DNA from: Minisyncoccota bacterium
GTDB taxonomy: Bacteria > Patescibacteriota > Minisyncoccia > UBA6257 > 2-01-FULL-56-20
NCBI GenBank assembly: GCA_041664245.1
Contig: JBAYLC010000001.1
Span: 190,585 to 254,584 of the forward strand
Length of the DNA stretch: 64,000 bases
Direction of reading: 5' to 3'
Shown here: in pieces, positions 4,106-61,914 of the stretch
Numbering within the stretch: the stretch's first letter is position 1
Layout: each line of letters starts with the position of its first letter
Program-made: the position numbers and the translations under genes
The notes under the pieces: generated by a model
Told to the model about the DNA's origin: nothing
What the model saw: the letters and a program-made list of their open reading frames with translations, nothing else
Database searches by the model: none

Positions 4106-6154
4106 ATGGAATTTAAACTAGAATCAAAATATAAACCAGCCGGTGACCAGCCCCAAGCTATCGCCGACTTGGTGGCGGGAATCAAAAAAGGATATCGCGA
4201 CCAGACTCTTTTGGGCGTCACCGGTAGCGGTAAAACCTTTACCGTCGCTAATGTAATTGCCCAGATTAATAAACCCGCGCTGGTTATCGCCCACAATAAA
4301 ACTCTTGCCGCCCAGCTTTGCAACGAATTCCGTGAACTGTTTCCCAATAATTCGGTTAATTATTTTGTTTCCTATTACGACTACTACCAGCCAGAAGCCT
4401 ATATGCCGACCACTGATACCTATATCGACAAAGAAGCCTTAATTAACGACGAGATCGATAAACTCCGCCACGCTGCGACCACCGCGCTCCTAACCCGTCG
4501 GGATGTTATCGTTGTCGCTTCGGTTTCTTGTATCTACGGTCTTGGCGCGCCCGAGGTTTACGCCCAAAATATTTTCAAACTAAAAATCGGCGATGAAATT
4601 AAACGCCAAATTTTTGCCCGCCGTTTAGTCGAACTTCAATACAGTCGCACTAATTCCGATTTAAAGCGCGGCACATTTCGCCTCCGCGGCGAGCAGTGGG
4701 AAATAATGCCGCCCGATCGGGAATTAATTTACACTTTCGAAATCAAAGGCGGAATAATTAAAGAAATTTACGAAGTGGATCCGGTCAAGGGTTTTCAACC
4801 GGGAAGCACCCCGAAATTAGATAAAGTAATTATCGCCCCCGCCAAGCATTTTATCACTCCACCAGAAGACAGGGAGCGAGCCATCAAAGCCATCAAAGAT
4901 GAACTTAGAGAACGTCTCAAATATTTTGAAAAAAACGGAAAACTCTTAGAAGCCGAAAGATTAGAGCGAAGAACAAAATTTGATTTAGCAATGATGAAAG
5001 AGGTTGGTTATTGCCACGGTATTGAAAACTACTCGCGCCACCTCTCTGGCCGATCGGCTGGCGAAGCGCCGGATACACTCCTGGATTATTTCCCAAAAAC
5101 CGAATCCGGCGAAGCCGATTTTTTGACGATTATTGACGAATCCCATGTCACTGTTCCGCAAATTAGAGGGATGTATTTCGGTGATGCTTCAAGAAAAAAA
5201 ACATTAGTTGAATATGGTTTCCGTTTGCCGTCCGCCTCCGACAATCGGCCGCTAAAGTTTAATGAGTTTGAATCTCGCATTGCGCAGGTAATCTATACTT
5301 CTGCTACCCCCGCCGAATTTGAACGAGAGAAAAGTCAGAAGATTATAGAGCAAATTATTCGCCCGACCGGTTTAGTTGATCCCAAAATCACCGTTCGTCC
5401 GGTTCGCGGGCAGATTGATGATTTGATTCCACGAATAGAAGATCGAGTCGCCAAAAAAGAGCGGGTCTTGGTAACAACCTTAACCAAAAAAATGGCGGAA
5501 GATTTGACTGACTATCTGAATGAATTAAATAAGAAAAAAACAAATCCAAAAGAAAGTCGTAATTTTAAATCTAAAGTTAAAGTTGCGTATCTCCATAGCG
5601 ACGTTAAAACTTTAGATAGAATCAGAATTCTAACCTCGCTTCGAAAAAGGGAGTATGACGTTCTAGTTGGCGTCAATCTTTTAAGAGAGGGTCTCGATTT
5701 GCCGGAAGTTTCTTTAGTCGCAATTTTAGATGCCGACAAAGAAGGATTTTTAAGAAGCGAAACTTCGCTTATCCAAACTATTGGCCGGGCCGCTCGTAAC
5801 GCGCAAGGGGAAGTTTTAATGTACGCCGATAATATTACCGGTTCTATAAAGCGAGCCATTGATGAAACCGAGCGCCGTCGCGTCATACAATTGGCCTACA
5901 ATAAAAAACATGGCATCACACCTAAAACTATCATTAAGGCAATTAAAGATATTCTTCCGGATGCCGGCGCCGCTCTGAAGCTTGAACTAAAGCCAGTCCA
6001 GAAATCTAAAGCCAGCTTGGAAAAATTGATTAAGCAAAAAGAAAAAGAGATGAGGGAGGCGGCTAGCCAGCTTGATTTTGAGTTGGCCGCTCTACTACGC
6101 GATGAAATAAGGGCACTAACTAAAAAAGTAAAAGAAAAAGTTGAGTCGTCCTAA
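4106..6154 (+). CDS. uvrB: Excinuclease ABC subunit B (UvrB)
   Basis: Helicase motifs ([11 protein letters not shown]), beta-hairpin region, C-terminal UVR domain; 682 aa. Confidence 0.97.
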
Positions 6155-6221
6155 ATTTTAGAACCTTCTTCCTTGGGACGACGAAATCCCGCACCAAAGG
6201 TTGTGGTGCGGGAAAAGGGAA

Positions 6222-6308
6222 ATGCGCGAAGCGGCCAAGGAATTGAACTTCGAATTAGCCGCAATTTTAAGAGACGAAATCCGTGTCTTGACAAAAAAAT
6301 TAAAATAA
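6222..6308 (+). CDS. 28-aa stand-alone UVR-domain micropeptide (paralog of UvrB C-terminus)
   Basis: MREAAKELNFELAAILRDEIRVLTKKLK versus UvrB tail [28 protein letters not shown]; not in ORF track (below 60 aa); SD-like GGAAAAGGGAA upstream. Confidence 0.5.
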   Translation: MREAAKELNFELAAILRDEIRVLTKKLK

Positions 6309-6329: not shown

Positions 6330-6358
6330 TTGACAAAATATTTCTAAGACGCTATAAT
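6330..6358 (+). promoter_or_regulatory. Consensus sigma70 promoter TTGACA-N17-TATAAT for the flotillin gene
   Basis: TTGACA 6330-6335, 17-nt spacer, TATAAT 6353-6358; AAGGAGG SD at 6428-6434; GTG start 6439. Confidence 0.7.
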
Positions 6359-6438
6359 ATCACCAGCAAAAAATTGAGTGTTTTGATTTCAAAACCATCA
6401 ATTCACTTAACCATTTTACAACCTAATAAGGAGGTCAG

Positions 6439-8853
6439 GTGTTACATCAGCCTGTGTCGCTTCTCTTTCCGGCAATCGGAATTGGAGCAGTGCTTTTTCT
6501 CATTGTGATCCTTAAGTCTTTTGTCATCGCAAAAGGCAATCAGATCATCACCCTTGAGAGACGTTGGTTCGGCGCGCAAATGCCGGACGGGCGTACGGTC
6601 GCTCTAAGCAACGAAGTTGGTCTCCAAGCTAGAGTGCTTGGACCGGGATTTCACTTTCTCATACCTTTTTTGTACAAAACGAAAAAGCATGATTTTCTAG
6701 TAATCTCAGCGAATCATGTCGGTATGGTGAGAGCAATCACCGGTGCGCCAATGCCATCAGGAAGTATCATGGCCAAACCGATTGACTGTGATTTATTTCA
6801 AGACGGCGAATTGTTTCTCCAGAACGGCGGCGAAAAGGGCCCTCAGCTCAGTATTCTCCCCGAGGGCGAATACAAAATCAACCCGCACTTATTTAGTATC
6901 GACATTGTCCAAGCTGTCATGATCGAAGACAGCGAAGTCGGTTACGTTGAATCAATTGCAGGAGAACCGGTCAAACGTGAAGGCGGCAATTTCGGTTCGC
7001 CAGTCGATTGCGACAATTTTCAGGATGCAGCAGCATTCATGAAAAATGGCGGGCAAAAAGGTCCTCAAATTTCCTTCCTTGTTCCCGGTCTCTATCGAGT
7101 CAATACGATCTTGTTCAAAGTGGAGAAGAAACCGATCACTGAGATACAAGGTGGTAAAGTCGGACTGATCGAAGCAACTGACGGCGCAAGAATTCCCGAA
7201 GGACGACTTCTCGCCAAAAGAGTGGAAGGCCACAATAACTTCAATGACGGCCAGGCGTTTATCGAAAAAGGTGGCGAGAAAGGTCGTCAGCTCGACGTTT
7301 TGATGCCGGGCAGATATCGTTTGAATCCAGCCCTATTCAGAGTCGTCGAAGTTGTCGACTGGACACATGTCCAGGCCGACGAAGTCGGTATTGTCACAAT
7401 CAACGAGGGGAAGCCAATCACGGATCCTTTGAAGATTGCGGCAGAAGAACTTCCGCTTGAGAAACACAACAACTTCCAAGACCCGCAGGCATTCATAACG
7501 GCGGGCGGACAAAAGGGATTGCAGATTCCAGTATTGCGTGCTGGTAATTATGCCATCAACCCATGGTTCGCCACCATCAAAAAAGTGCCGATGACCAAGG
7601 TGGCTATTGGCGAATGTGGTGTTGTCACAAGTTATGTCGGTGAGGACGGTGCTGACACAACAGATGAGGCCGTGAATGCCAAGATCGTCAAAAACGGATG
7701 CAGAGGTATCTGGGCAGAACCGTTGCAGCCCGGAATGCATCCGATCAATACGAGTATCTGCAAAGTTGACATCGTGCCTACCACGCAGATTCTGCTGAAT
7801 TGGGCGGATAATCGTTCGAGCGCGCATGAGCTCGACGAGAACCTGAAGACCATCACGCTACGAACCGCGGACGCATTCAGCGTGAATATGGACGTAAGCG
7901 TGATTATCCATATTCCCATGCAGAACGCGCCCAAGGTAATTGCCAATCTCGGATCAATGCAGAACATGATTTCTCAGGTCCTAGAACCGGCGATAAGTTC
8001 ACACTTCAGAAATGCCGCGCAGTACATCGAGGCGCTCGATCTGTACACTAAACGGAAAGAGCTTCAAGATGCCGCGAAAAAGCACATCGACGAAGTGTTG
8101 AAGACGCATCATATCGATTCACGTGATACTCTCATCGCGGACGTGGTATTGCCGATTGAACTCACTAAAACGGTTTCCGACCGGCAAATTGCGGAACAGG
8201 AGAAGAAAACCTACGGAGTGCAGAAGGAAGCTCAAAATACAAGAAGAGAGCTTGAGAACGCAACGGCGCAAGCCAATATGCAGACTGAAGTTGTGAAATC
8301 CGAGCGAAATGTTGAAATTGCGAGGAACGTCGCTGACGGAAAGGTGAATGAAGCCACAGGCGCAAGACAGGCAGCAATTTTACACGCGGAAGGCGCGGCC
8401 GAAGCGGTTAAGATCACTGCTGCCGCAAATGCAGAAGCAACGAAGGTGAACGCGGAAGCCAATGCCGAAGCAATCACTAAGGTTGGCAACGCCGAAGCAG
8501 AGGTTATTCTTGCTAAAGGAACATCAACTGCAAAAGCTTACGAGCTCGAAGTCAAGGCGATGGGCGAGAAGAACTTCGGCCAGATCCGTGTCGTCAACGC
8601 AATCGCCGAAAAGGGTGTAAAGCTGATACCGGACAATCTAGTCATTGGCGGCGGAGGCGGAAACGGAAGTGGCGATCTTATTGGCAGCTTCTTAGGACTT
8701 CGTCTTCTTGAGCAGCTGTCTGGTAAACCGTTCGCTGTCAGCGTTCCGAAAACTGACGAGGTGACCACTACGAAAGTAGACGAAGCCAGCGCTACGGGAA
8801 CCGACCTTAAAAAGGAAGGCCCCCAATCTGGTTCCGACAAGAAGAAATCGTAA
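6439..8853 (+). CDS. Flotillin-like SPFH/Band-7 protein with N-terminal tandem repeat expansion and EA-repeat coiled-coil tail
   Basis: N-terminal TM; SPFH start (GPGFHFLIPF); 4-5 repeats of NFQD..AF...GG.KG.Q...L.PG.Y..NP.LF; flotillin EA repeats (AEANAEAITKVGNAEAEVILAKG). Confidence 0.8.
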   Translation: MLHQPVSLLFPAIGIGAVLFLIVILKSFVIAKGNQIITLERRWFGAQMPDGRTVALSNEVGLQARVLGPGFHFLIPFLYKTKKHDFLVISANHVGMVRAITGAPMPSGSIMAKPIDCDLFQDGELFLQNGGEKGPQLSILPEGEYKINPHLFSIDIVQAVMIEDSEVGYVESIAGEPVKREGGNFGSPVDCDNFQDAAAFMKNGGQKGPQISFLVPGLYRVNTILFKVEKKPITEIQGGKVGLIEATDGARIPEGRLLAKRVEGHNNFNDGQAFIEKGGEKGRQLDVLMPGRYRLNPALFRVVEVVDWTHVQADEVGIVTINEGKPITDPLKIAAEELPLEKHNNFQDPQAFITAGGQKGLQIPVLRAGNYAINPWFATIKKVPMTKVAIGECGVVTSYVGEDGADTTDEAVNAKIVKNGCRGIWAEPLQPGMHPINTSICKVDIVPTTQILLNWADNRSSAHELDENLKTITLRTADAFSVNMDVSVIIHIPMQNAPKVIANLGSMQNMISQVLEPAISSHFRNAAQYIEALDLYTKRKELQDAAKKHIDEVLKTHHIDSRDTLIADVVLPIELTKTVSDRQIAEQEKKTYGVQKEAQNTRRELENATAQANMQTEVVKSERNVEIARNVADGKVNEATGARQAAILHAEGAAEAVKITAAANAEATKVNAEANAEAITKVGNAEAEVILAKGTSTAKAYELEVKAMGEKNFGQIRVVNAIAEKGVKLIPDNLVIGGGGGNGSGDLIGSFLGLRLLEQLSGKPFAVSVPKTDEVTTTKVDEASATGTDLKKEGPQSGSDKKKS

Positions 8854-8871: not shown

Positions 8872-8905
8872 CCCACCCTGTTGGATACAGGGTGGGCTTT
8901 TTTTT
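8872..8905 (+). terminator. Intrinsic terminator after flotillin gene
   Basis: CCCACCCTG-ttggata-CAGGGTGGG followed by T9. Confidence 0.8.
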
Positions 8906-9033
8906 GCCTTTTTAAAATCCTTACATTAAACTCTTCTGTATCTACCCCCTATAGGTCCAAGACTGGGGGCAGTTCTCGTATTCATATAAAACCATAATTC
9001 GTAATTCTTTATTCCTAATTCACGTTTAACAAA

Positions 9034-11553
9034 ATGAAAGACAAAATAATTATCAAAGGCGCCCGCGAGCATAATCTGAAAAATATTAATCTCGAAATTC
9101 CTCGCGATAAAATGATTGTTTTTACTGGGTTATCTGGTTCCGGAAAATCTTCGCTGGCTTTTGATACCATTTTCGCCGAAGGCCAACGCCGCTATATTGA
9201 ATCCCTTTCCGCCTACGCCCGGCAGTTTTTAGGCCGGCTCGATAAACCCGACGTCGATGAAATTGAAGGTCTCTCGCCGTCAATTTCTATTGATCAAAAA
9301 AGCCATTCGTCCAATCCTCGTTCCATCGTTGCGACCATCACGGAAATTTACGACTATCTCCGCGTTCTTTTCGCGCGGGTTGGCAAGCCGTTTTGCCCCA
9401 AGTGCGGCAAAGAAATCCGCCGAATGACCAATGAAGAGATTGTCGACGCTGCCATTGATTTTTCCAAAGCTCACAAAAATATTCGCGAAATTACAATTCT
9501 TGCGCCCGTGGTGCGGGGACGAAAAGGGGAGTATTACCAGATGCTTTACGATTTTCTAAACGCCGGTTTTTCGGAAGTTCGTTTAGATGGAGAATTCAAA
9601 TCGCTTCGCCATCGGATTGAACTAAGCCGTTATAAACAGCACACGATTGAATTAATCGTCGATAAAATTCCCGGCAATATGAATTTCAAGGAAAAAGATA
9701 ATCGGCTTCGCTTGGCCGAGGCCGTTGAATCAGCGCTTAAATACGGCCATGATGTTATCACGATTTTAATCGGCGGTGAAGAACTTTCCTTGTCTTCAAA
9801 ATTCGCCTGCCCCGAAGATAATTTTTCCTTTCCCGAAATCGAACCCCGCTTGTTTTCGTTTAATAGCCCCTATGGCGCTTGTCCGGAATGCCATGGATTA
9901 GGCACGGAAGATGTCTGGTCCGAAAAAATTTGTTTGCTCTGCCAAGGCAAGCGATTAAAAGAAGAAGCGCTTAACGTTTTAATAAAAAATAAAAATATTG
10001 TTTCCTTAACTGCTTTATCAATTTCCGAAGCGTTCGCTTTTTTCACCAAACTAGAAGAATCATCGGCCGATAAATTTATGGCCGTGGCCGAACTGCCGCT
10101 TCGGGAAATCAAAAGCCGTTTGAAGTTTATGATTGATGTCGGTCTTGATTATCTGACTCTCGATCGCAAGGCCGGAACGCTCTCGGGCGGCGAGGCGCAA
10201 AGAATTCGATTAGCTTCTCAAATCGGTTCTCGCTTGGTTGGCACTTTATATATTTTAGACGAACCGACGATTGGTCTTCATCAGCGCGATAACGCTAAAC
10301 TAATCAAAACTCTCCATGATCTCCGCGACATTGGCAACACAATTATCGTTGTTGAACACGACGAAGAAACTATTCGAGAATCAGATTATCTTGTTGATTT
10401 TGGACCCGCCGCCGGCGTTCACGGCGGCAAGATTGTTGCCCAAGGGCCGATCCCGGAAATTTTTAAAGACCCAAAGCAAAGTTCGCTTACTCTGGATTAT
10501 TTAAACGGCAAGAAGTCAATTCCTATTCCCGATGAACGCCGTAAAATCGGGAAAAATCAAGAATATTTAAAAATCAAAAGCGCCTTTGCTAATAATCTTC
10601 AAAACATTGATATTAACATTCCTCTCCGGCGTTTTACCGCCATCACCGGTGTTTCCGGTTCGGGTAAAAGTTCGCTCCTTTATGATGTCATCTATAAATC
10701 CCTTTCTGACGGTGTAAGTCGCGCCAGAAGCAAGCCAGAGGGCTGTAAAGGGGTTCTAGGCACGGAATACTTTAACCGCACGATAAATATTGACCAATCA
10801 GCAATCGGTCGCACTCCGCGCTCCAATCCGGCGACCTACGTCGGCGCTTGGACTCATGTTCGTGATCTTTTTGCCTCCACGCCTGATGCCCGAGTTCGCG
10901 GTTATAAACCCGGCCGATTTAGTTTTAATGTTCCCGGCGGGCGTTGTGAAAACTGCGAAGGCCACGGCACCATCGCCATTGAAATGCATTTTTTGCCGAC
11001 CGTTTATGTTGAATGCGATATTTGCCACGGCAAACGTTTTGATCGGGAAACATTAGAGGTTGAGTATAACGGAAAAAATATCCATGACGTTTTAAAAATG
11101 ACCGTCGAAGAGGCCGTGAAATTTTTCCGCGATATCCCGTGGCTTCACGAAAGATTAAATATTTTAGAAGAAGTCGGTCTTGGTTATCTTGAGCTCGGCC
11201 AATCCGCTACCACTCTTTCGGGCGGTGAAGCTCAAAGAGTTAAGCTCTCGGCCGAGCTTGGCAAGCGCGATACCCATCGCACGCTTTATCTTCTAGACGA
11301 ACCAACCACCGGCCTTCATTTCGGCGATATTCAAAAACTTCTGGAAGTTTTGAATCGTCTCGTGGAAAAAGGGAATACAGTTGTTTTAATTGAGCACAAC
11401 TTAGACGTTATTAAAACCGCCGACTGGGTAATTGACCTCGGTCCCGAAGGCGGAGTGAAAGGCGGCAAAATTATCGCCGAGGGAACGCCGGAAGAAATCG
11501 CCAGAAAGGCAAATAGTTTTACCGGCGAATATTTAAGAAAAGTTTTGAAGTAA
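9034..11553 (+). CDS. uvrA: Excinuclease ABC subunit A (UvrA), short form with reduced insertion domain
   Basis: Two ABC ATPase modules ([14 protein letters not shown]; [13 protein letters not shown]), zinc-finger cysteines, LSGGE signatures; 839 aa versus about 940 typical. Confidence 0.95.
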
Positions 11554-11894: not shown

Positions 11895-11922
11895 CCGCGG
11901 CTTCCAATGGCTGCGGTTTTTG
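11895..11922 (+). terminator. Intrinsic terminator after SEC-C gene
   Basis: CCGCGGC-ttccaatg-GCTGCGG then TTTTTGTTTAT. Confidence 0.55.
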
Positions 11923-11940
11923 TTTATATTAAGCACGAAA

Positions 11941-13158
11941 ATGACTAAAGAAATATTTTACAAAAACTTACCCCTTACCCCCGGCGTTTATTTAATGAAA
12001 AATAAAAAAGGGGAGATTATCTACGTTGGCAAGGCTGGCAATTTAAAGCGTCGAGTTTCAAGCTATTTTCAGCGCGCCGGTGACTGGAAAACCGAAAAAC
12101 TAGTCAACGAAATAAAGAAAATTGATTATCGGAAAACCGACACCGCGCTTGAAGCGCTCATTCTAGAAGCCGATCTAATCAAAAAATATCAACCAAAATA
12201 TAACGTCTTGGAAAAAGATGACCGCAGTTTTTTGTATGTTGTCATTACTAAAGAAGAATTTCCCCGTTTAGTTCTTGCCCGCGGAAAAGACATAAAAAGC
12301 GAAAAAGATAAATATTCAAAAATCTACGGCCCATTTGTCTCCGCGCGAAGCGTCCGCGAAGCTCTAAAAATTATCCGCCGGATTTTTCCGTGGAATACTC
12401 ATGACGAAAATTTTTTAAAACAGAGTAATAATCGCCCTTGTTTTGATTTTCAAATCGGCAATTGTCCCGGTGTTTGTGTCGGTGAGATCAGTAAAAAAGA
12501 TTACCAAAAAACCGTGAAACAAATTGAACTATTTTTTGCCGGTAAAAAGAAAAAAATTATTCAAGCTCTAAATAAAGAAATGAAAATAAAAAGTAGGGGA
12601 TTAGAATTTGAAGCCGCCGAAAAAATCCACCGGCAAATTTTCGGCCTCCAACATATCAACGACATCGCTTTCATCAACGAAAATCAAGCTCCCCATTCTC
12701 CATTCTACATTCTCCATTCCACCCGTATTGAGGGCTACGATATCTCCAATATTTCTGGCACCTCCGCCGTCGGCTCAATGGTTGTTTTTTCTAATAACAA
12801 ACCCGATAAAAATGAATATCGAAAATTCAAAATTAAAACCGTAAAAGGCGCCAATGATGTTGGTATGTTAAAAGAAGTTTTAACTCGCCGATTTAAAAAT
12901 AACTGGCCGCAACCGCAATTGATTCTAATTGATGGGGGAGTGGGACAGATAAACTCTGCCCGAAAAGTTTTGAAAGAATTTAATCTTAAAATTCCCATGC
13001 TTGGCATCGTCAAAGGCCCGCAAAGAAAAAACAATTTCATAATTGGCAATATTCCTAGTTGGACCGATAGAAAAACCTTAATTCAAATTCGCGACGAAGC
13101 CCACCGTTTTGCAATCAGTTACCATAAAAATCTAAGATCCAAACAAAGTTTGACTTAA
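11941..13158 (+). CDS. uvrC: Excinuclease ABC subunit C (UvrC), lacking C-terminal (HhH)2 domain
   Basis: GIY-YIG (GVYLMKNKKGEIIYVGKAGNLKRRVSSYF), UVR domain, RNase-H-like EndoV domain ending ...IRDEAHRFAISYH; ORF track start 11920 overlaps terminator so ATG 11941 preferred. Confidence 0.9.
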   Translation: MTKEIFYKNLPLTPGVYLMKNKKGEIIYVGKAGNLKRRVSSYFQRAGDWKTEKLVNEIKKIDYRKTDTALEALILEADLIKKYQPKYNVLEKDDRSFLYVVITKEEFPRLVLARGKDIKSEKDKYSKIYGPFVSARSVREALKIIRRIFPWNTHDENFLKQSNNRPCFDFQIGNCPGVCVGEISKKDYQKTVKQIELFFAGKKKKIIQALNKEMKIKSRGLEFEAAEKIHRQIFGLQHINDIAFINENQAPHSPFYILHSTRIEGYDISNISGTSAVGSMVVFSNNKPDKNEYRKFKIKTVKGANDVGMLKEVLTRRFKNNWPQPQLILIDGGVGQINSARKVLKEFNLKIPMLGIVKGPQRKNNFIIGNIPSWTDRKTLIQIRDEAHRFAISYHKNLRSKQSLT

Positions 13159-15257: not shown

Positions 15258-15926
15258 ATGGACATTTTTTCTCACGGTCTCTGGGCTAACGCAGTTTTCG
15301 AAACTGCCGCTCAAATAAAATTTAAAAAAAGAAATCGCCTTAGTGTTTGGTTGGGCATCTTTTTTGGAATCATGCCTGATCTTTTTTCCTTTGGTATTTT
15401 TTTCGCCGTTGGCATTTTTAATAAATTACCGGTAATTCTAAGTTATATAGGCTCCAGATTACTAGAAGAATTGAATCGAATTATTACTAGCATATCTTCT
15501 TTGGCGCCCAATACCGGGCAAACCATCGGTAAAATTGCGGAAAAAACTTGGGGAGCATTACCGAGCGGCCCGCCCGATCCCGGGTCAATCCCAAATTACG
15601 TTTACACTCTCTATAATTTCACTCATAGCTTTCTGATCTTCGCTCTTATTTTTGGAGTTGTCTGGTTTCTCCGAAAAAAACCCTATTGGCTCTTGGCTGG
15701 TTGGGGACTTCATATTTTCATCGATATCTTTTCGCATACCGAAAAGTTTTTCCCGACTCCCTTTTTATTTCCAATTTCCAATTTTCACGTCAGTTTAACT
15801 AGCTGGGGCAATCCACTTTTTATGATTATTAATTATTCCGCTCTGATCAGTGTCTACCTTTGGCTATATGGTTTTTCCTCCCGAAAAAAATCAATCAAAA
15901 AAAGTGCTAAAAGTAAAAAGGATTAA
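15258..15926 (+). CDS. Membrane-bound metal-dependent hydrolase (DUF457/YdjM-like)
   Basis: Starts MDIFSHGLWA with conserved His, multiple TM helices, HTEKFFPTP motif. Confidence 0.5.
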   Translation: MDIFSHGLWANAVFETAAQIKFKKRNRLSVWLGIFFGIMPDLFSFGIFFAVGIFNKLPVILSYIGSRLLEELNRIITSISSLAPNTGQTIGKIAEKTWGALPSGPPDPGSIPNYVYTLYNFTHSFLIFALIFGVVWFLRKKPYWLLAGWGLHIFIDIFSHTEKFFPTPFLFPISNFHVSLTSWGNPLFMIINYSALISVYLWLYGFSSRKKSIKKSAKSKKD

Positions 15927-16467
15927 TCCGGCGATTAAAAAAATTGTCAGAAGCGGGGGAGTGGGGGTTATGCCAACCGACACAATTTATGGCCTAGTCG
16001 GTTCTGCGATGATCCCAGAAACAGTCGAACGAATTTATAAACTTCGCCGCCGTGATCCAAAAAAACCGCTTATTGTCTTAATCGACAAAATTTCCGACCT
16101 CAAAAAATTCAAAATTACCCTAAACCCTAAACTCTATAACCTAGCGGCTAGTTATTGGCCGGGTCCAGTCAGTATTATTTTGCCTTGCCCACTAAAAAAT
16201 TTTTCCTATCTTCATCGCGGCACCAAAACAATTGCTTTTCGCCTCCCTAAGTTAAAATGGCTTATAGAATTTTTAGATGAGGTTGGGCCGCTTGTCGCGC
16301 CGAGCGCAAACCCGGCGGATAGGCATCCGGCTAGGAACATTCGTCACGCCGTTAGATATTTTGGAAATCAGGTGGATTTTTATATCGATAGCGGCGAAAA
16401 AAAAATAACCAAGCCGTCAACCCTACTTAAAATTACAGAAAAGGGAATCGAAACACTGCGCCAGTAA
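15868..16467 (+). CDS. tsaC: L-threonylcarbamoyladenylate synthase (TsaC/YrdC family)
   Basis: YrdC signature SGGVGVMPTDTIYGLVGSA...KLRRRDPKKPLIVLI; exact start ambiguous (GTG 15850 / ATG 15868), overlaps upstream gene. Confidence 0.8.
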   Translation: MVFPPEKNQSKKVLKVKRINPAIKKIVRSGGVGVMPTDTIYGLVGSAMIPETVERIYKLRRRDPKKPLIVLIDKISDLKKFKITLNPKLYNLAASYWPGPVSIILPCPLKNFSYLHRGTKTIAFRLPKLKWLIEFLDEVGPLVAPSANPADRHPARNIRHAVRYFGNQVDFYIDSGEKKITKPSTLLKITEKGIETLRQ

Positions 16468-16479
16468 TGAATCCAAAAG

Positions 16480-16992
16480 CTATTTTTTATTTATCATCCC
16501 CGCAATCAGATTATTGATTTCATCAAGGGGTTTTGCTAATTCCTCTGAAAGCGTATTGTCGGGGCCGGCAAAAAAACGGTCTACCAAAACATTGCCATTT
16601 ATTTCAATTTTTATGCTTGTTAACATTCCCTCACCTGGTTGAGACAAAACAGGAACTGTGTCCTTCTCGGTAAGATTCTGATATTTTTTAAAATCAAGAA
16701 TTAGAATCTTATCCCAAATTTCCTGAAATTCTGAGATATTAATTTGCATTGTCTTCGGCGCTACTCCTTTTATTCCATTTCTCTCCATGGCGGCGGCGTT
16801 TAAACCCGGAACGTATTTCAATTCAATTTTATCTCCCTCTTTTTTTAGGTTATATTCGTTGCCGTAAGCGAAAACAATAGAATTTGGAATGTTCTCAATT
16901 TTTTCCATATTTTTAGAATTAAATTTAAAAGAGAAAATTATCGCTCCAACCGCAATAATAAAGGCAACGATTATAAGCATTACTGAACGCAT
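16480..16992 (-). CDS. Hypothetical membrane-anchored protein
   Basis: N-terminal TM helix, no recognisable domain. Confidence 0.5.
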   Translation of the reverse strand: MRSVMLIIVAFIIAVGAIIFSFKFNSKNMEKIENIPNSIVFAYGNEYNLKKEGDKIELKYVPGLNAAAMERNGIKGVAPKTMQINISEFQEIWDKILILDFKKYQNLTEKDTVPVLSQPGEGMLTSIKIEINGNVLVDRFFAGPDNTLSEELAKPLDEINNLIAGMINKK

Positions 16993-17202
16993 TTCCGTTA
17001 GTATTAATTATACAACAATTTCCATCCATAAATTAACGTCATTCGCATGTAATTCGCAATGTTTATGTCGATAACAACTAGTCCGAATTCTTGACTCACA
17101 GTTCCGCAAAATGCTACAATCCCTAAAAGCTCTCAGCGAGTGCTTTTTTCTTCTCGAAAAATAATTTCTTAAAGGTCGGCTATTAGAAATAAAAAAATAA
17201 AA

Positions 17203-17715
17203 ATGTCAAAAAAAACATACATAATAATTGCCGTAATCGTTGTTGTGGTTGTGATCTTTATATTGATCAGCGGAAATAAAAATAACGAAAACTTGAACAC
17301 CGTTAAAACCTCCACCGTCAATATTGCTGCTTTTGATAACTCGGGCATTTCGGGAACTGCCACAATCACGGAAGTAGAAGGCAAGTCTAAGGTTGTCGTC
17401 TCTCTAAATGGATATCCAGTTGATGCTAACGAACCAGCTCGAATTAATACTGGTTCTTGCGCGAGTTTGGGCGGTGAAAAATATCCCCTTACTAATGTTG
17501 TAGGCGGCGCTTCTGAAACCGTTCTTGAAGTTTCTTTTGATGATTTAATGAAGCAGTTGCCATTGGCGATTAACATTCATAAATCAGAAACCGAATCCGA
17601 CAAAAACGTTGCTTGCGGCGACATTGTCGCGCCAACTCCGGTCGGAGATGACAGTCAAACTACTCCGCCTGCCGTGAACGAAAACAGCACCGGAACCGCT
17701 CCTGTTACTGAATAA
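17203..17715 (+). CDS. Membrane-anchored Cu/Zn-superoxide-dismutase-like (SodC-fold) protein lacking metal-ligand histidines
   Basis: GISGTATITEVEGKSKVVVSLNGYP...INTGSCASLGGEKYP aligns with SodC (GSVTITETDKGLEF...HGFHIHAKGSC...AGGHLDP) but His ligands replaced; N-terminal TM anchor. Confidence 0.45.
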   Translation: MSKKTYIIIAVIVVVVVIFILISGNKNNENLNTVKTSTVNIAAFDNSGISGTATITEVEGKSKVVVSLNGYPVDANEPARINTGSCASLGGEKYPLTNVVGGASETVLEVSFDDLMKQLPLAINIHKSETESDKNVACGDIVAPTPVGDDSQTTPPAVNENSTGTAPVTE

Positions 17716-18204: not shown

Positions 18205-18233
18205 TTGACAAAATTACTCAAACCGATTATAAC
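18205..18233 (+). promoter_or_regulatory. Consensus sigma70 promoter TTGACA-N17-TATAAC driving a non-coding transcript
   Basis: TTGACA 18205-18210, 17-nt spacer, TATAAC 18228-18233. Confidence 0.6.
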
Positions 18234-36721: not shown

Positions 36722-36841
36722 AAATCCTCCAGAGTTTCAAACTAAAGCTTCTTTACAGATTATACACCTAATATTATACTTTGTCAAGATTATGCATTAG
36801 AGCTTGATACCTAATACACGACACTTGATACACAACAAACC

Positions 36842-61005: not shown

Positions 61006-61914
61006 ATGATTGATCTCATTAGAAGAAAATATCTCTTTTTATCTGTTTCCGGTGTTCTAGTAGCCGCCGCCATATTTTCGATACTAGTATTCGGTTTTCG
61101 AGAAGGTGTTGATTTTAAAGGTGGCACTCTTTGGCAAATAAAAATTAACGATCAGTCAGTAACTACCGAAGATGTCACGGCAATTATCCAACCGGAAATA
61201 AGTAAAATAGGGGAAGCGAAAATAAATCGGGATATAAGCAGTGATTCGTTCCTCGCCCGCCTACCGGTCTTAAATGAAACCGAACATCAAAAACTAATCG
61301 AGATTCTAAAAGCAAAATTTCCAAAGGCTGAAGAATTAAGCTTTCAATCAATCGGCCCGTCAGTCGGCGCCGCTCTCAGGAAAAACGCTTTTATTTCCAT
61401 CGCTCTAGTCCTAATCGGAATTTCACTCTACATCGCTTATTCTTTCCGAAAAGTTTCCCGGCCGATTAGCTCCTGGAAGTACGGTTTTGTCACTCTTATT
61501 TCGCTCTTCCACGACATCGCCATTCCCGCCGGTTTATTGGCTATTTTAGGCCACTTCGGAACGGTTGAAATTGATGGCAATTTTGTCGTTGCTCTTTTGG
61601 TCATCATGGGCTTCTCGGTTCACGATACCATTGTTGTATTTGACAGAATACGAGAAAACCTATATAATGACAAAGGAAAGAGTGATTTTGGTCAGGTTAT
61701 CAATACTAGCGTTAATCAAACCATTGCCCGATCAATAAACACCTCTTTAACCCTAGTTTTAGTGCTCTTGGCTCTTTTCTTTGCCGGGCCGATAAACCTT
61801 AAATACTTCATTCTTACCCTACTTATTGGAGTTGTGATGGGTACTTATTCGTCAATTTTTGTAGCCAGTCCAGCTCTTTATATATGGCAGAAACTGTCAA
61901 AAAAGGGAAAATAA
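61006..61914 (+). CDS. secF: Protein translocase subunit SecF
   Basis: Adjacent to secD, 6 TM, conserved SecF motifs. Confidence 0.9.
   Translation: MIDLIRRKYLFLSVSGVLVAAAIFSILVFGFREGVDFKGGTLWQIKINDQSVTTEDVTAIIQPEISKIGEAKINRDISSDSFLARLPVLNETEHQKLIEILKAKFPKAEELSFQSIGPSVGAALRKNAFISIALVLIGISLYIAYSFRKVSRPISSWKYGFVTLISLFHDIAIPAGLLAILGHFGTVEIDGNFVVALLVIMGFSVHDTIVVFDRIRENLYNDKGKSDFGQVINTSVNQTIARSINTSLTLVLVLLALFFAGPINLKYFILTLLIGVVMGTYSSIFVASPALYIWQKLSKKGK

Follow-up and report, generated by a model that had tools for sequence, protein, structure and literature searches.

The locus and its expression signals

The whole stretch of DNA considered here, hereafter the window, comprises 64,000 nucleotides of a Minisyncoccota bacterium (GenBank assembly GCA_041664245.1, contig JBAYLC010000001.1, positions 190,585 to 254,584 of the forward strand) and carries, between uvrB and uvrA, a gene for a protein of the SPFH family with a domain order like that in the major vault protein (MVP). 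Its product is found at full identity in a public collection as protein P0001. The gene, its signals and its flanking genes are the following:

6439..8853, + strand: coding sequence of the SPFH-family protein with MVP-like domain order; GTG start, 804 amino acids (aa), from the list of open reading frames (ORFs)
6330..6358, + strand: sigma-70-type promoter, TTGACA-17 nt-TATAAT, consensus match 12/12
6428..6434, + strand: Shine-Dalgarno sequence AAGGAGG, 4 nt 5' of the GTG, read from the sequence
8872..8906, + strand: intrinsic terminator, a 10-bp GC-rich stem (8872-8896) followed by T8
4106-6154: uvrB, 5' flank of the SPFH gene (ORF list)
9034-11553: uvrA, 3' flank of the SPFH gene (ORF list)
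11920-13158: uvrC-like ORF, beyond uvrA (ORF list)

The original prediction, made from the letters of the sequence, had described a highly expressed flotillin-type gene wedged between the two uvr genes and preceded by a consensus promoter and an AAGGAGG ribosome-binding site; the location and both signals are borne out. Regarding the promoter, it is a credible, genuine-looking one, yet other perfect copies of the motif exist in the window, where TTGACA-17-TATAAT with at most one mismatch occurs five times against 0.72 expected from shuffles. Besides the copy at 6330, the perfect ones lie at 36759-36787 (- strand) and 61640-61668 (+ strand), making three in all, and those with one mismatch at 18205 and 46351. 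Judged from the promoter and Shine-Dalgarno signals, strong expression of the SPFH gene is plausible. The terminator folds with -21.4 kcal/mol (z = -3.4).

Domain organisation and tandem repeats

The layout of the protein along the gene is as follows, with residue numbers of the product:

6445..6519, + strand: transmembrane (TM) helix, aa 3-27; helix in the AlphaFold2 (AF2) model and hydrophobicity in homologs
6520..6693, + strand: unit 0, aa 28-85; short five-stranded beta domain with GPGFHFLIPF, without the inserted helix
6694..6912, + strand: unit 1, aa 86-158; hhalign against units 2-4
6913..7137, + strand: unit 2, aa 159-233; profile-profile comparison and AF2
7138..7365, + strand: unit 3, aa 234-309; profile-profile comparison and AF2
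7366..7593, + strand: unit 4, aa 310-385; profile-profile comparison and AF2
7594..8238, + strand: degenerate sixth unit and SPFH core, aa 386-600; Band_7, prohibitin/QmcA/HflC sequence matches
8179..8610, + strand: long alanine/glutamate-rich alpha-helix, aa 581-724; AF2 helices 581-708 and 710-724, with a predicted local distance difference test (pLDDT) of ~50-75
8611..8850, + strand: C-terminal segment with a conserved KLIPENLVIGGGGG motif, a short helix (aa 747-761) and a variable charged tail; alignment A1 and AF2

Membership of the SPFH superfamily is established by the match to the Pfam family Band_7 (PF01145) over aa 415-599 (E 3.9e-26, 92.6 bits vs. a cut-off of 23.6), together with a predicted N-terminal anchor and with helices and a C-terminal segment following the SPFH domain. 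The Band_7 match is present in all 56 relatives scanned, and no Pfam family besides Band_7 and Band_7_1 was reported for the window protein or these 56 relatives. The membrane anchor that had been read from the sequence is supported by the AF2 helix and by a hydrophobic 19-mer in the homologs, the best 19-mer having a mean Kyte-Doolittle value of 2.44 across them. Some 360 residues separate this helix from the Band_7 match, and GPGFHFLIPF (aa 68-77), which is a canonical SPFH N-terminal strand motif, stands ~340 residues before Band_7 within a segment (aa 52-81) that aligns with the N-terminal strand of prohibitin.

Tandem repetition had been proposed for the intervening region, in the form of four to five degenerate copies of 80-95 aa. 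Four clear copies stand, to which two degenerate flanking ones have to be added, and the length has to be revised, the four robust units measuring 73-76 aa each with a pairwise identity of 35-41% within the window protein. While BLASTP comparison of the protein with itself gave the identity match only, profile-profile comparison, used instead with each unit profile cut as a block of columns out of the 56-homolog alignment, makes the internal repetition significant, with unit-versus-unit E-values of 6e-14 to 8e-29 and probabilities of 98-99.8%; unit 1, for instance, matches units 2, 3 and 4 with E 8e-29, 3e-27 and 8e-16 (hhalign). The flanking regions, namely aa 29-85 and aa 386-452 where the SPFH domain starts, show marginal sequence similarity to these units (best E ~1e-4), as exemplified by unit 0 against unit 3 (E 1.5e-4, hhalign). 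In the AF2 model, however weak this profile similarity, aa 28-85 have the same five-strand pattern as the units (DSSP strands 28-31, 35-41, 59-67, 70-73 and 79-85; pLDDT 84-90).

The consensus of the units reads ..I..d.VG.Veai.Gapip.G...A.pv.c.dnFQDgeAFlknGGqKGpQl.vL.pG.YrINP.lF.Vekv, and in each of units 1-4 an inserted short helix and loop bears the F-Q-D...A-F...G-G-x-K-G-x-Q signature. No tandem repetition was found at the DNA level in the repeat region, which indicates that the duplications are old. The repeat is covered by no domain model, and annotations in the family are limited to "SPFH domain-containing protein" or "YqiK".

Downstream of the SPFH core, the alanine/glutamate-rich helical tail expected from the sequence is recovered in the AF2 helices, with weak matches to the coiled coils of FloT, Scy and DivIVA, and is followed by the Gly-rich C-terminal segment. 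In the model, the long helix would take the place of the coiled-coil segments CC1/CC2 of SPFH proteins or of the cap helix of the vault. As for aa 386-600, this region, assigned from sequence because the AF2 confidence is poor there (pLDDT < 50), corresponds by its position to SPFH1+SPFH2 or to the vault "shoulder".

The assignment to flotillins that accompanied the SPFH prediction has to be abandoned. The protein scores 17.4 bits against the NCBIfam model FloT (NF058507), for which the cut-off is 700, so that it falls short of the flotillin equivalog, and the tail has no other Pfam match. That the product would be an ordinary orthologue of flotillin or YqiK, with an N-terminus that just happens to look repetitive, agrees with the name "uncharacterized membrane protein YqiK" given to it by JGI and with the weak FloT match on the helical tail, but is contradicted by the position of Band_7 far from the TM helix, by the FloT score and by the significance of the repeats (E 1e-14 to 1e-29), and is further disfavoured by the spread of unit numbers among family members, from 2 to 13; this explanation is hardly credible.

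Fold of the repeat unit

The AF2 model, built from the 56-sequence alignment, displays five serial five-stranded beta domains over aa 28-385 (pLDDT 85-95), the last four of which have the short inserted helix. When compared with the PDB using Foldseek, 16 of the 16 top matches are MVP (E 3e-6 to 3e-4), SPFH proteins coming next, and the modelled beta domains superpose on MVP repeats. A model of a single unit (unit 1, pLDDT 86.5) was likewise compared with 48,164 chains, and the top ten consist solely of SPFH proteins and MVP, the best folds being those of prohibitin, erlin-2, HflK, HflC, stomatin and QmcA. On the basis of these matches, the predicted unit is the small N-terminal beta subdomain of SPFH proteins, which is also the fold of the MVP repeat. 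The suggestion that the repeated module corresponds to the N-terminal region of the SPFH protein is thus upheld, and the hidden Markov model of the unit also matches a relative from Ralstonia at aa 335-379, i.e. within its SPFH match (i-E 2.7e-7). SPFH1 is the name used in the structural literature for the small beta-sheet subdomain that ordinarily stands ahead of the SPFH core, and the "MVP repeat" would have arisen as a duplicate of it, with support from the fold and weaker support from sequence.

These observations can be set against what is known of membrane SPFH proteins. SPFH complexes are cages on membranes made of TM, SPFH1, SPFH2, coiled-coil (CC) and C-terminal (CT) parts, with the vault as the non-membrane exception, and the structurally characterised SPFH proteins all form rings or domes on membranes (PMC12624060). 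The window protein shares with HflK/C, QmcA, prohibitin, erlin, stomatin and flotillin an N-terminal anchor, Band_7, a long helix and a closing C-terminal segment, and a single one of its units folds as the N-terminal beta subdomain of this same class. Whereas known membrane SPFH proteins have one SPFH1 copy, the window protein has about six in series. It also differs in lacking partners of the HflK/C or NfeD type, no HflC-like paralogue, NfeD/YbbJ or FtsH adjoining the window gene.

Comparison with the major vault protein

As in MVP (PDB 3GF5, 4V60, 6BP7, 9R86), beta repeats are followed in the window protein by an SPFH-like domain, a very long helix and a short C-terminal segment, which in MVP are the shoulder, the cap helix and the cap ring. 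This domain order and the folds speak for multiplication of an SPFH1-like subdomain, with the building plan of MVP as the outcome. In the vault, the barrel wall is built from MVP repeats and the N-termini of MVP make the waist between the two halves. The differences are nonetheless numerous: the window protein has an N-terminal TM helix, which MVP lacks, and five to six units vs. nine; its units, unlike MVP repeats, hold the inserted helix and loop with FQD...GGxKGxQ; its SPFH part is a regular Band_7, whereas that of MVP is MVP_shoulder; and its gene is bacterial and solo, with no evident equivalent of vault RNA, TEP1 or PARP4.

Furthermore, no sequence similarity to MVP is detectable in the window protein. 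MVP was found neither with the unit profile against PDB sequences nor with nine- and eight-unit relatives against the PDB, and a homolog search starting from human MVP, the sequence of which was checked against PDB 11dr_A, returned vertebrate MVPs alone and no bacterial MVP-like sequences. The region comprising SPFH and helix is co-linear with the shoulder and cap helix of MVP, at a level that is not significant (E 0.0034, probability 9%).

Relationships between these families have been reported before. The relation between SPFH and the vault shoulder is already known, and MVP-like proteins of prokaryotes have been described in Myxococcales, Cytophagales and Oscillatoriales (Daly 2013, PMC3762200; Sokolskyi 2019, bioRxiv 10.1101/872010), as have MVP homologues with five repeats in Asgard archaea (PMC12962969), prokaryotic relatives of MVP being said to amount to ten proteins from Asgard archaea and those of a small number of Bacteria (PMC12962969). 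The vault has been presented as the sole SPFH assembly with "MVP domains" and the sole one off the membrane (PMC12624060, PMC13100048), while it is also on record that the MVP repeat is equivalent to the domain with which SPFH proteins begin: as published in 2026, ECOD has this N-terminal domain, taken from ordinary SPFH proteins of archaea, in its "MVP repeat" group (PMC13607799). The reported prokaryotic MVP-like proteins share repeats, a band-7-like shoulder and a coiled coil, some being annotated "band 7" and the Asgard one having five repeats; their discovery rested on resemblance to MVP, detected by BLAST or as a reciprocal best structural hit, and they are presented as MVP homologues that have no membrane anchor. 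The window family, by contrast, is TM-anchored, has no detectable MVP sequence similarity and is far more widespread (more than 3,400 90%-identity clusters near the query), differences that would set the two apart. No description was found in the literature of a widespread TM-anchored bacterial, plasmid- or phage-borne SPFH family with 2-13 tandem MVP-like units.

Could the window protein then be a genuine prokaryotic MVP, either an orthologue or a direct ancestor, forming closed soluble particles with two halves? The shared domain order, the MVP structures that head the PDB matches over the repeats, the existence of wider-family members without a TM helix (P0134, P0135) and the MVP-like proteins reported in a few Bacteria and, with five repeats, in Asgard archaea (PMC3762200, 10.1101/872010, PMC12962969) would all agree with it. 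However, the N-terminus is not free as in the soluble MVP type, and the TM helix conserved in the window family sits where vault halves would have to meet. Besides, the SPFH part matches Band_7 and not MVP_shoulder, the Vault-repeat families of Pfam find none of the 56 members, and an MVP alignment gives no significant result when compared profile to profile, all of which makes a true MVP very improbable.

Family size, variants and membrane topology

The repeat architecture had been regarded as an unusual local expansion; it is instead ancient, highly conserved and common to thousands of proteins. The close relatives, at 60-80% identity, exceed 3,400 (90%-identity clusters), and the best 120 of them are 69-78% identical to the window protein and 761-827 aa long, a narrow range which indicates that the four-unit architecture is fixed in the close subfamily. 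A set of 185,579 species, each represented by a single genome, yielded 117 relatives at 58-80% identity, all from metagenome-assembled genomes and belonging to Patescibacteria, Acidobacteriota, Verrucomicrobiota, Bacteroidota, Myxococcota and Gammaproteobacteria. The wider family was delineated with a single-unit profile against 1.84 billion representatives, which gave 1,343 clusters (50% identity) at E <= 1e-3, including 179 at E <= 1e-30; the profile matched between 2 and 14 stretches in a protein. Among the 108 complete representatives with an SPFH part, the number of units ranges from 2 to 13, and an N-terminal TM helix is present in 77 and absent from 31.

Distant relatives are encountered on plasmids of Ralstonia, Rhizobium, Streptomyces and Clostridium, as well as in Vibrio phages that have been cultured and in an uncultured phage of 642 kb. 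Relatives also occur in IMG/VR contigs. In Ralstonia insidiosa ATCC 49129, plasmid pRI-1 encodes WP_024979564.1, an "SPFH domain-containing protein" of 696 aa in which a TM helix and a short first unit precede three full units and an SPFH domain; its repeat region is 41% identical to that of the window protein. In Vibrio phage Kuja, Kuja_1010 is a "putative membrane protein" of 547 aa with one unit. Both follow the same order as the window protein, from TM helix to short first unit, tandem units and SPFH; the former is borne by a megaplasmid and the latter by a phage genome, whereas the window gene is chromosomal, and neither relative has a reported function.

Some variants depart from this scheme. 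Giant relatives of 1,140-1,802 aa (P0121, P0123 and P0140) display up to 13 units (11-13 in a local scan of the 1,600-1,800-aa forms), Band_7 and, at the C-terminus, a VWA domain; weak matches of their repeats to the CshA adhesin repeat model add up to a summed hit. A vWA domain occurs in the minor vault protein PARP4; any tie between the latter and the VWA of the giant relatives is speculative. In P0153, the units are associated with an N-terminal VWA and RTX calcium-binding repeats, without an SPFH domain. P0134 and P0135 have no TM helix, and the former, a soluble form, ends in a CxxC...CxxC zinc-ribbon-like motif.

The relatives with VWA and RTX modules suggest an extracytoplasmic stalk as the main rival to a cage on the cytoplasmic side, that is a cell-surface stalk or adhesin in which the TM helix would be an N-in signal anchor, the bulk of the protein would be outside, the beta domains would make a rigid stalk, and SPFH and helix would oligomerise. 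In its favour, the giant forms combine a C-terminal VWA with repeats that weakly match the CshA adhesin repeat, another relative joins its units to VWA and RTX in place of SPFH, and the SPFH cages of HflK/C and QmcA can face the periplasm (PMC12624060). The distribution of charges around the TM helix points the other way, the segment before it averaging 7 residues with 0.15 lysine plus arginine (K+R) and the segment after it 2.13 K+R, with more K+R after the helix than before it in 49/54 homologs. This bias suggests, from sequence, an N-out/C-in orientation with the bulk of the protein in the cytoplasm, and no positive N-region of the signal-peptide kind is present. As the window protein itself has no CshA, VWA or RTX match and its best folds are MVP and SPFH rather than adhesins, a surface stalk is considered unlikely.

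Genomic context and history of the gene

In related Paceibacterota, the gene order is FKBP, uvrB, spacer, uvrA and uvrC, the spacer being of 0.6-1.1 kb and occupied by unrelated small ORFs in place of the SPFH gene (8038-8745 in L090, 3079-4185 in L091 and 8044-8747 in L092), from which it can be concluded that the gene was inserted in the lineage of the window. The ORFs of these spacers differ from one relative to the next (167 aa; 90 and 75 aa; 51 aa), none having a Pfam family, and the uvrB-uvrA spacer is a variable spot in Paceibacterota. A further feature lies at the edge of the inserted gene:

6212..6308, + strand: out-of-frame relic of a uvrB 3' end (UVR domain, ...REMREAAKELNFELAAILRDEIRVLTKKLK and stop), ~60 nt past the uvrB stop and before the promoter

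While this relic has ~65% nucleotide identity to the 3' end of the window's own uvrB, it reaches 81-82% over 62 nt with the 3' ends of the true uvrB genes in related Paceibacterota (L090, L092). It is probably a recombination scar, and its sequence suggests either that uvrB was replaced or that the inserted cassette carried a piece of the uvrB of a relative.

By the name of its UvrB, the host belongs to Candidatus Paceibacterota. Window UvrB is 72-82% identical within this group, whereas the SPFH protein shares 78% identity with a protein of Thermoanaerobaculia, which implies horizontal transfer. Regarding base composition, the SPFH gene has a GC content of 0.498 (0.528 at third codon positions), compared with 0.436 (0.422) for uvrB, 0.452 (0.438) for uvrA and 0.409 for the window. 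Elevated GC as strong proof of recent transfer was rejected, because gene GC tracks flank GC (r = 0.98 over 39 loci), always pulled toward ~50%, and the window gene is only somewhat above this trend. Since gene GC follows host GC so closely, most copies must be long-resident. Homologs in other AT-rich hosts, however, have a GC only 4-7 points above their flanks, so that the copy in the window may have come in fairly recently, from a donor richer in GC.

No recurrent neighbour family across lineages was found among 90 loci, neither uvrB nor uvrA was found adjoining homologs in other genomes, and PADLOC models returned 0 families at E <= 1. These results bear on another proposal, which concerns the role of the protein and is compatible with a cage: an accessory of mobile elements, whether an anti-phage factor or a phage-encoded membrane scaffold, spread horizontally, that would serve infection or defence, e.g. 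by sequestering or perturbing membrane components, and not the routine organisation of the membrane. In favour of such a role are the solitary gene, equipped with a strong promoter and a terminator of its own and inserted in a variable spacer, a patchy distribution over at least 6 phyla at 58-80% identity, and relatives on the plasmids, phages and IMG/VR contigs listed above. On the other hand, there is no PADLOC match, no defence-island neighbour and no conserved partner in the 90 loci, and the tracking of host GC speaks for long residence in most hosts, so that this role is rated improbable, about on a par with the surface stalk.

A proposed tall membrane-anchored cage

The favoured interpretation, held as probable with considerable room for doubt, is that of a membrane-anchored SPFH protein with about six serial SPFH1-type subdomains, forming a tall cage or "half vault" on the cytoplasmic face of the membrane. 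The six copies would be the short one after the TM helix, the four of 73-76 aa and the last, degenerate one joined to the SPFH core, after which would come this core, a helix of ~140 residues and the Gly-rich C-terminal segment. Like other SPFH proteins, the subunits would assemble side by side into a homo-oligomeric ring, the TM helices fixing its rim in the cytoplasmic membrane and the long helices converging into a roof. Stacking of the beta domains would lengthen the wall into a tall dome enclosing a patch of membrane and a volume on its cytoplasmic side, and the height of the wall in the wider family may be set by the number of units (2-13). The family is spread horizontally, with relatives on plasmids and phages, and the Paceibacterota lineage of the window gained it as a stand-alone gene with strong signals, through insertion into the variable uvrB-uvrA spacer.

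Several points weigh against this interpretation. The alignment fed to AF2 is shallow in diversity (67-76% identity), and the model is poor over the SPFH core (aa 388-583; pLDDT < 50), leaving the junction between repeats and core out of sight. Despite the MVP folds retrieved with the model, the Pfam Vault repeats (PF01505, PF17794-6) and MVP_shoulder (PF11978) match 0 of the 56 members at E <= 10, and hhalign against human MVP or a vertebrate MVP alignment gives non-significant probabilities of 0.3-9%. With respect to topology, aspartate plus glutamate also average 1.4 after the TM helix, which makes the positive-inside signal modest, and the VWA and RTX modules of some distant relatives fit an extracytoplasmic location. 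As to the cage, it is drawn by analogy with the vault and with SPFH assemblies.

A bolder and rather doubtful extension would make the family the bacterial counterpart of the vault, namely half-vaults on membranes with a height given by the number of units (2-13), the TM-less members (P0134, P0135) being free particles. All vault-type shells, whether of eukaryotes, archaea or bacteria, would then descend from ordinary membrane SPFH cages by serial duplication of SPFH1, followed by loss of the anchor in some lineages, and plasmids and phages would explain the spread.

By combining an anchor, an MVP-like chain, a regular Band_7 and a cap-like helix in one widespread and very conserved bacterial family, the protein would be a structural intermediate between the vault and the membrane SPFH cage, and the relation of vault-like cages to the usual SPFH cages on membranes may become apparent from it. 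The range of 2-13 units would offer a natural series to study how wall height is built, and tractable sources for cryo-EM and genetics are at hand in the plasmid pRI-1 of R. insidiosa ATCC 49129 and in the Vibrio phages.

Surroundings of homologs in IMG/VR contigs

Some observations concern the homologs in IMG/VR contigs. The gene content of L086-L089 is mixed and would fit a phage or a cellular origin, L087-L089 being of 40-178 kb. In L088 (2168-7658 and 13676-16242), a 59%-identical homolog directly follows, on its 3' side, a protein of 580 aa that weakly matches DUF2828, and is close to a MoxR-like ATPase (AAA_5), with adenylosuccinate synthetase and IMPDH/GMP-reductase genes 3' and many ORFs without a Pfam family, a picture that tentatively resembles a large phage. 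In L086 (169 kb), a 63%-identical homolog has among its neighbours (at 853-1890, 11897-12928 and 15519-17510) a homing endonuclease of the HNH/NUMOD4 kind, a PspA/IM30-like protein and an ABC-transporter ATPase into which an intein with a LAGLIDADG domain is inserted.

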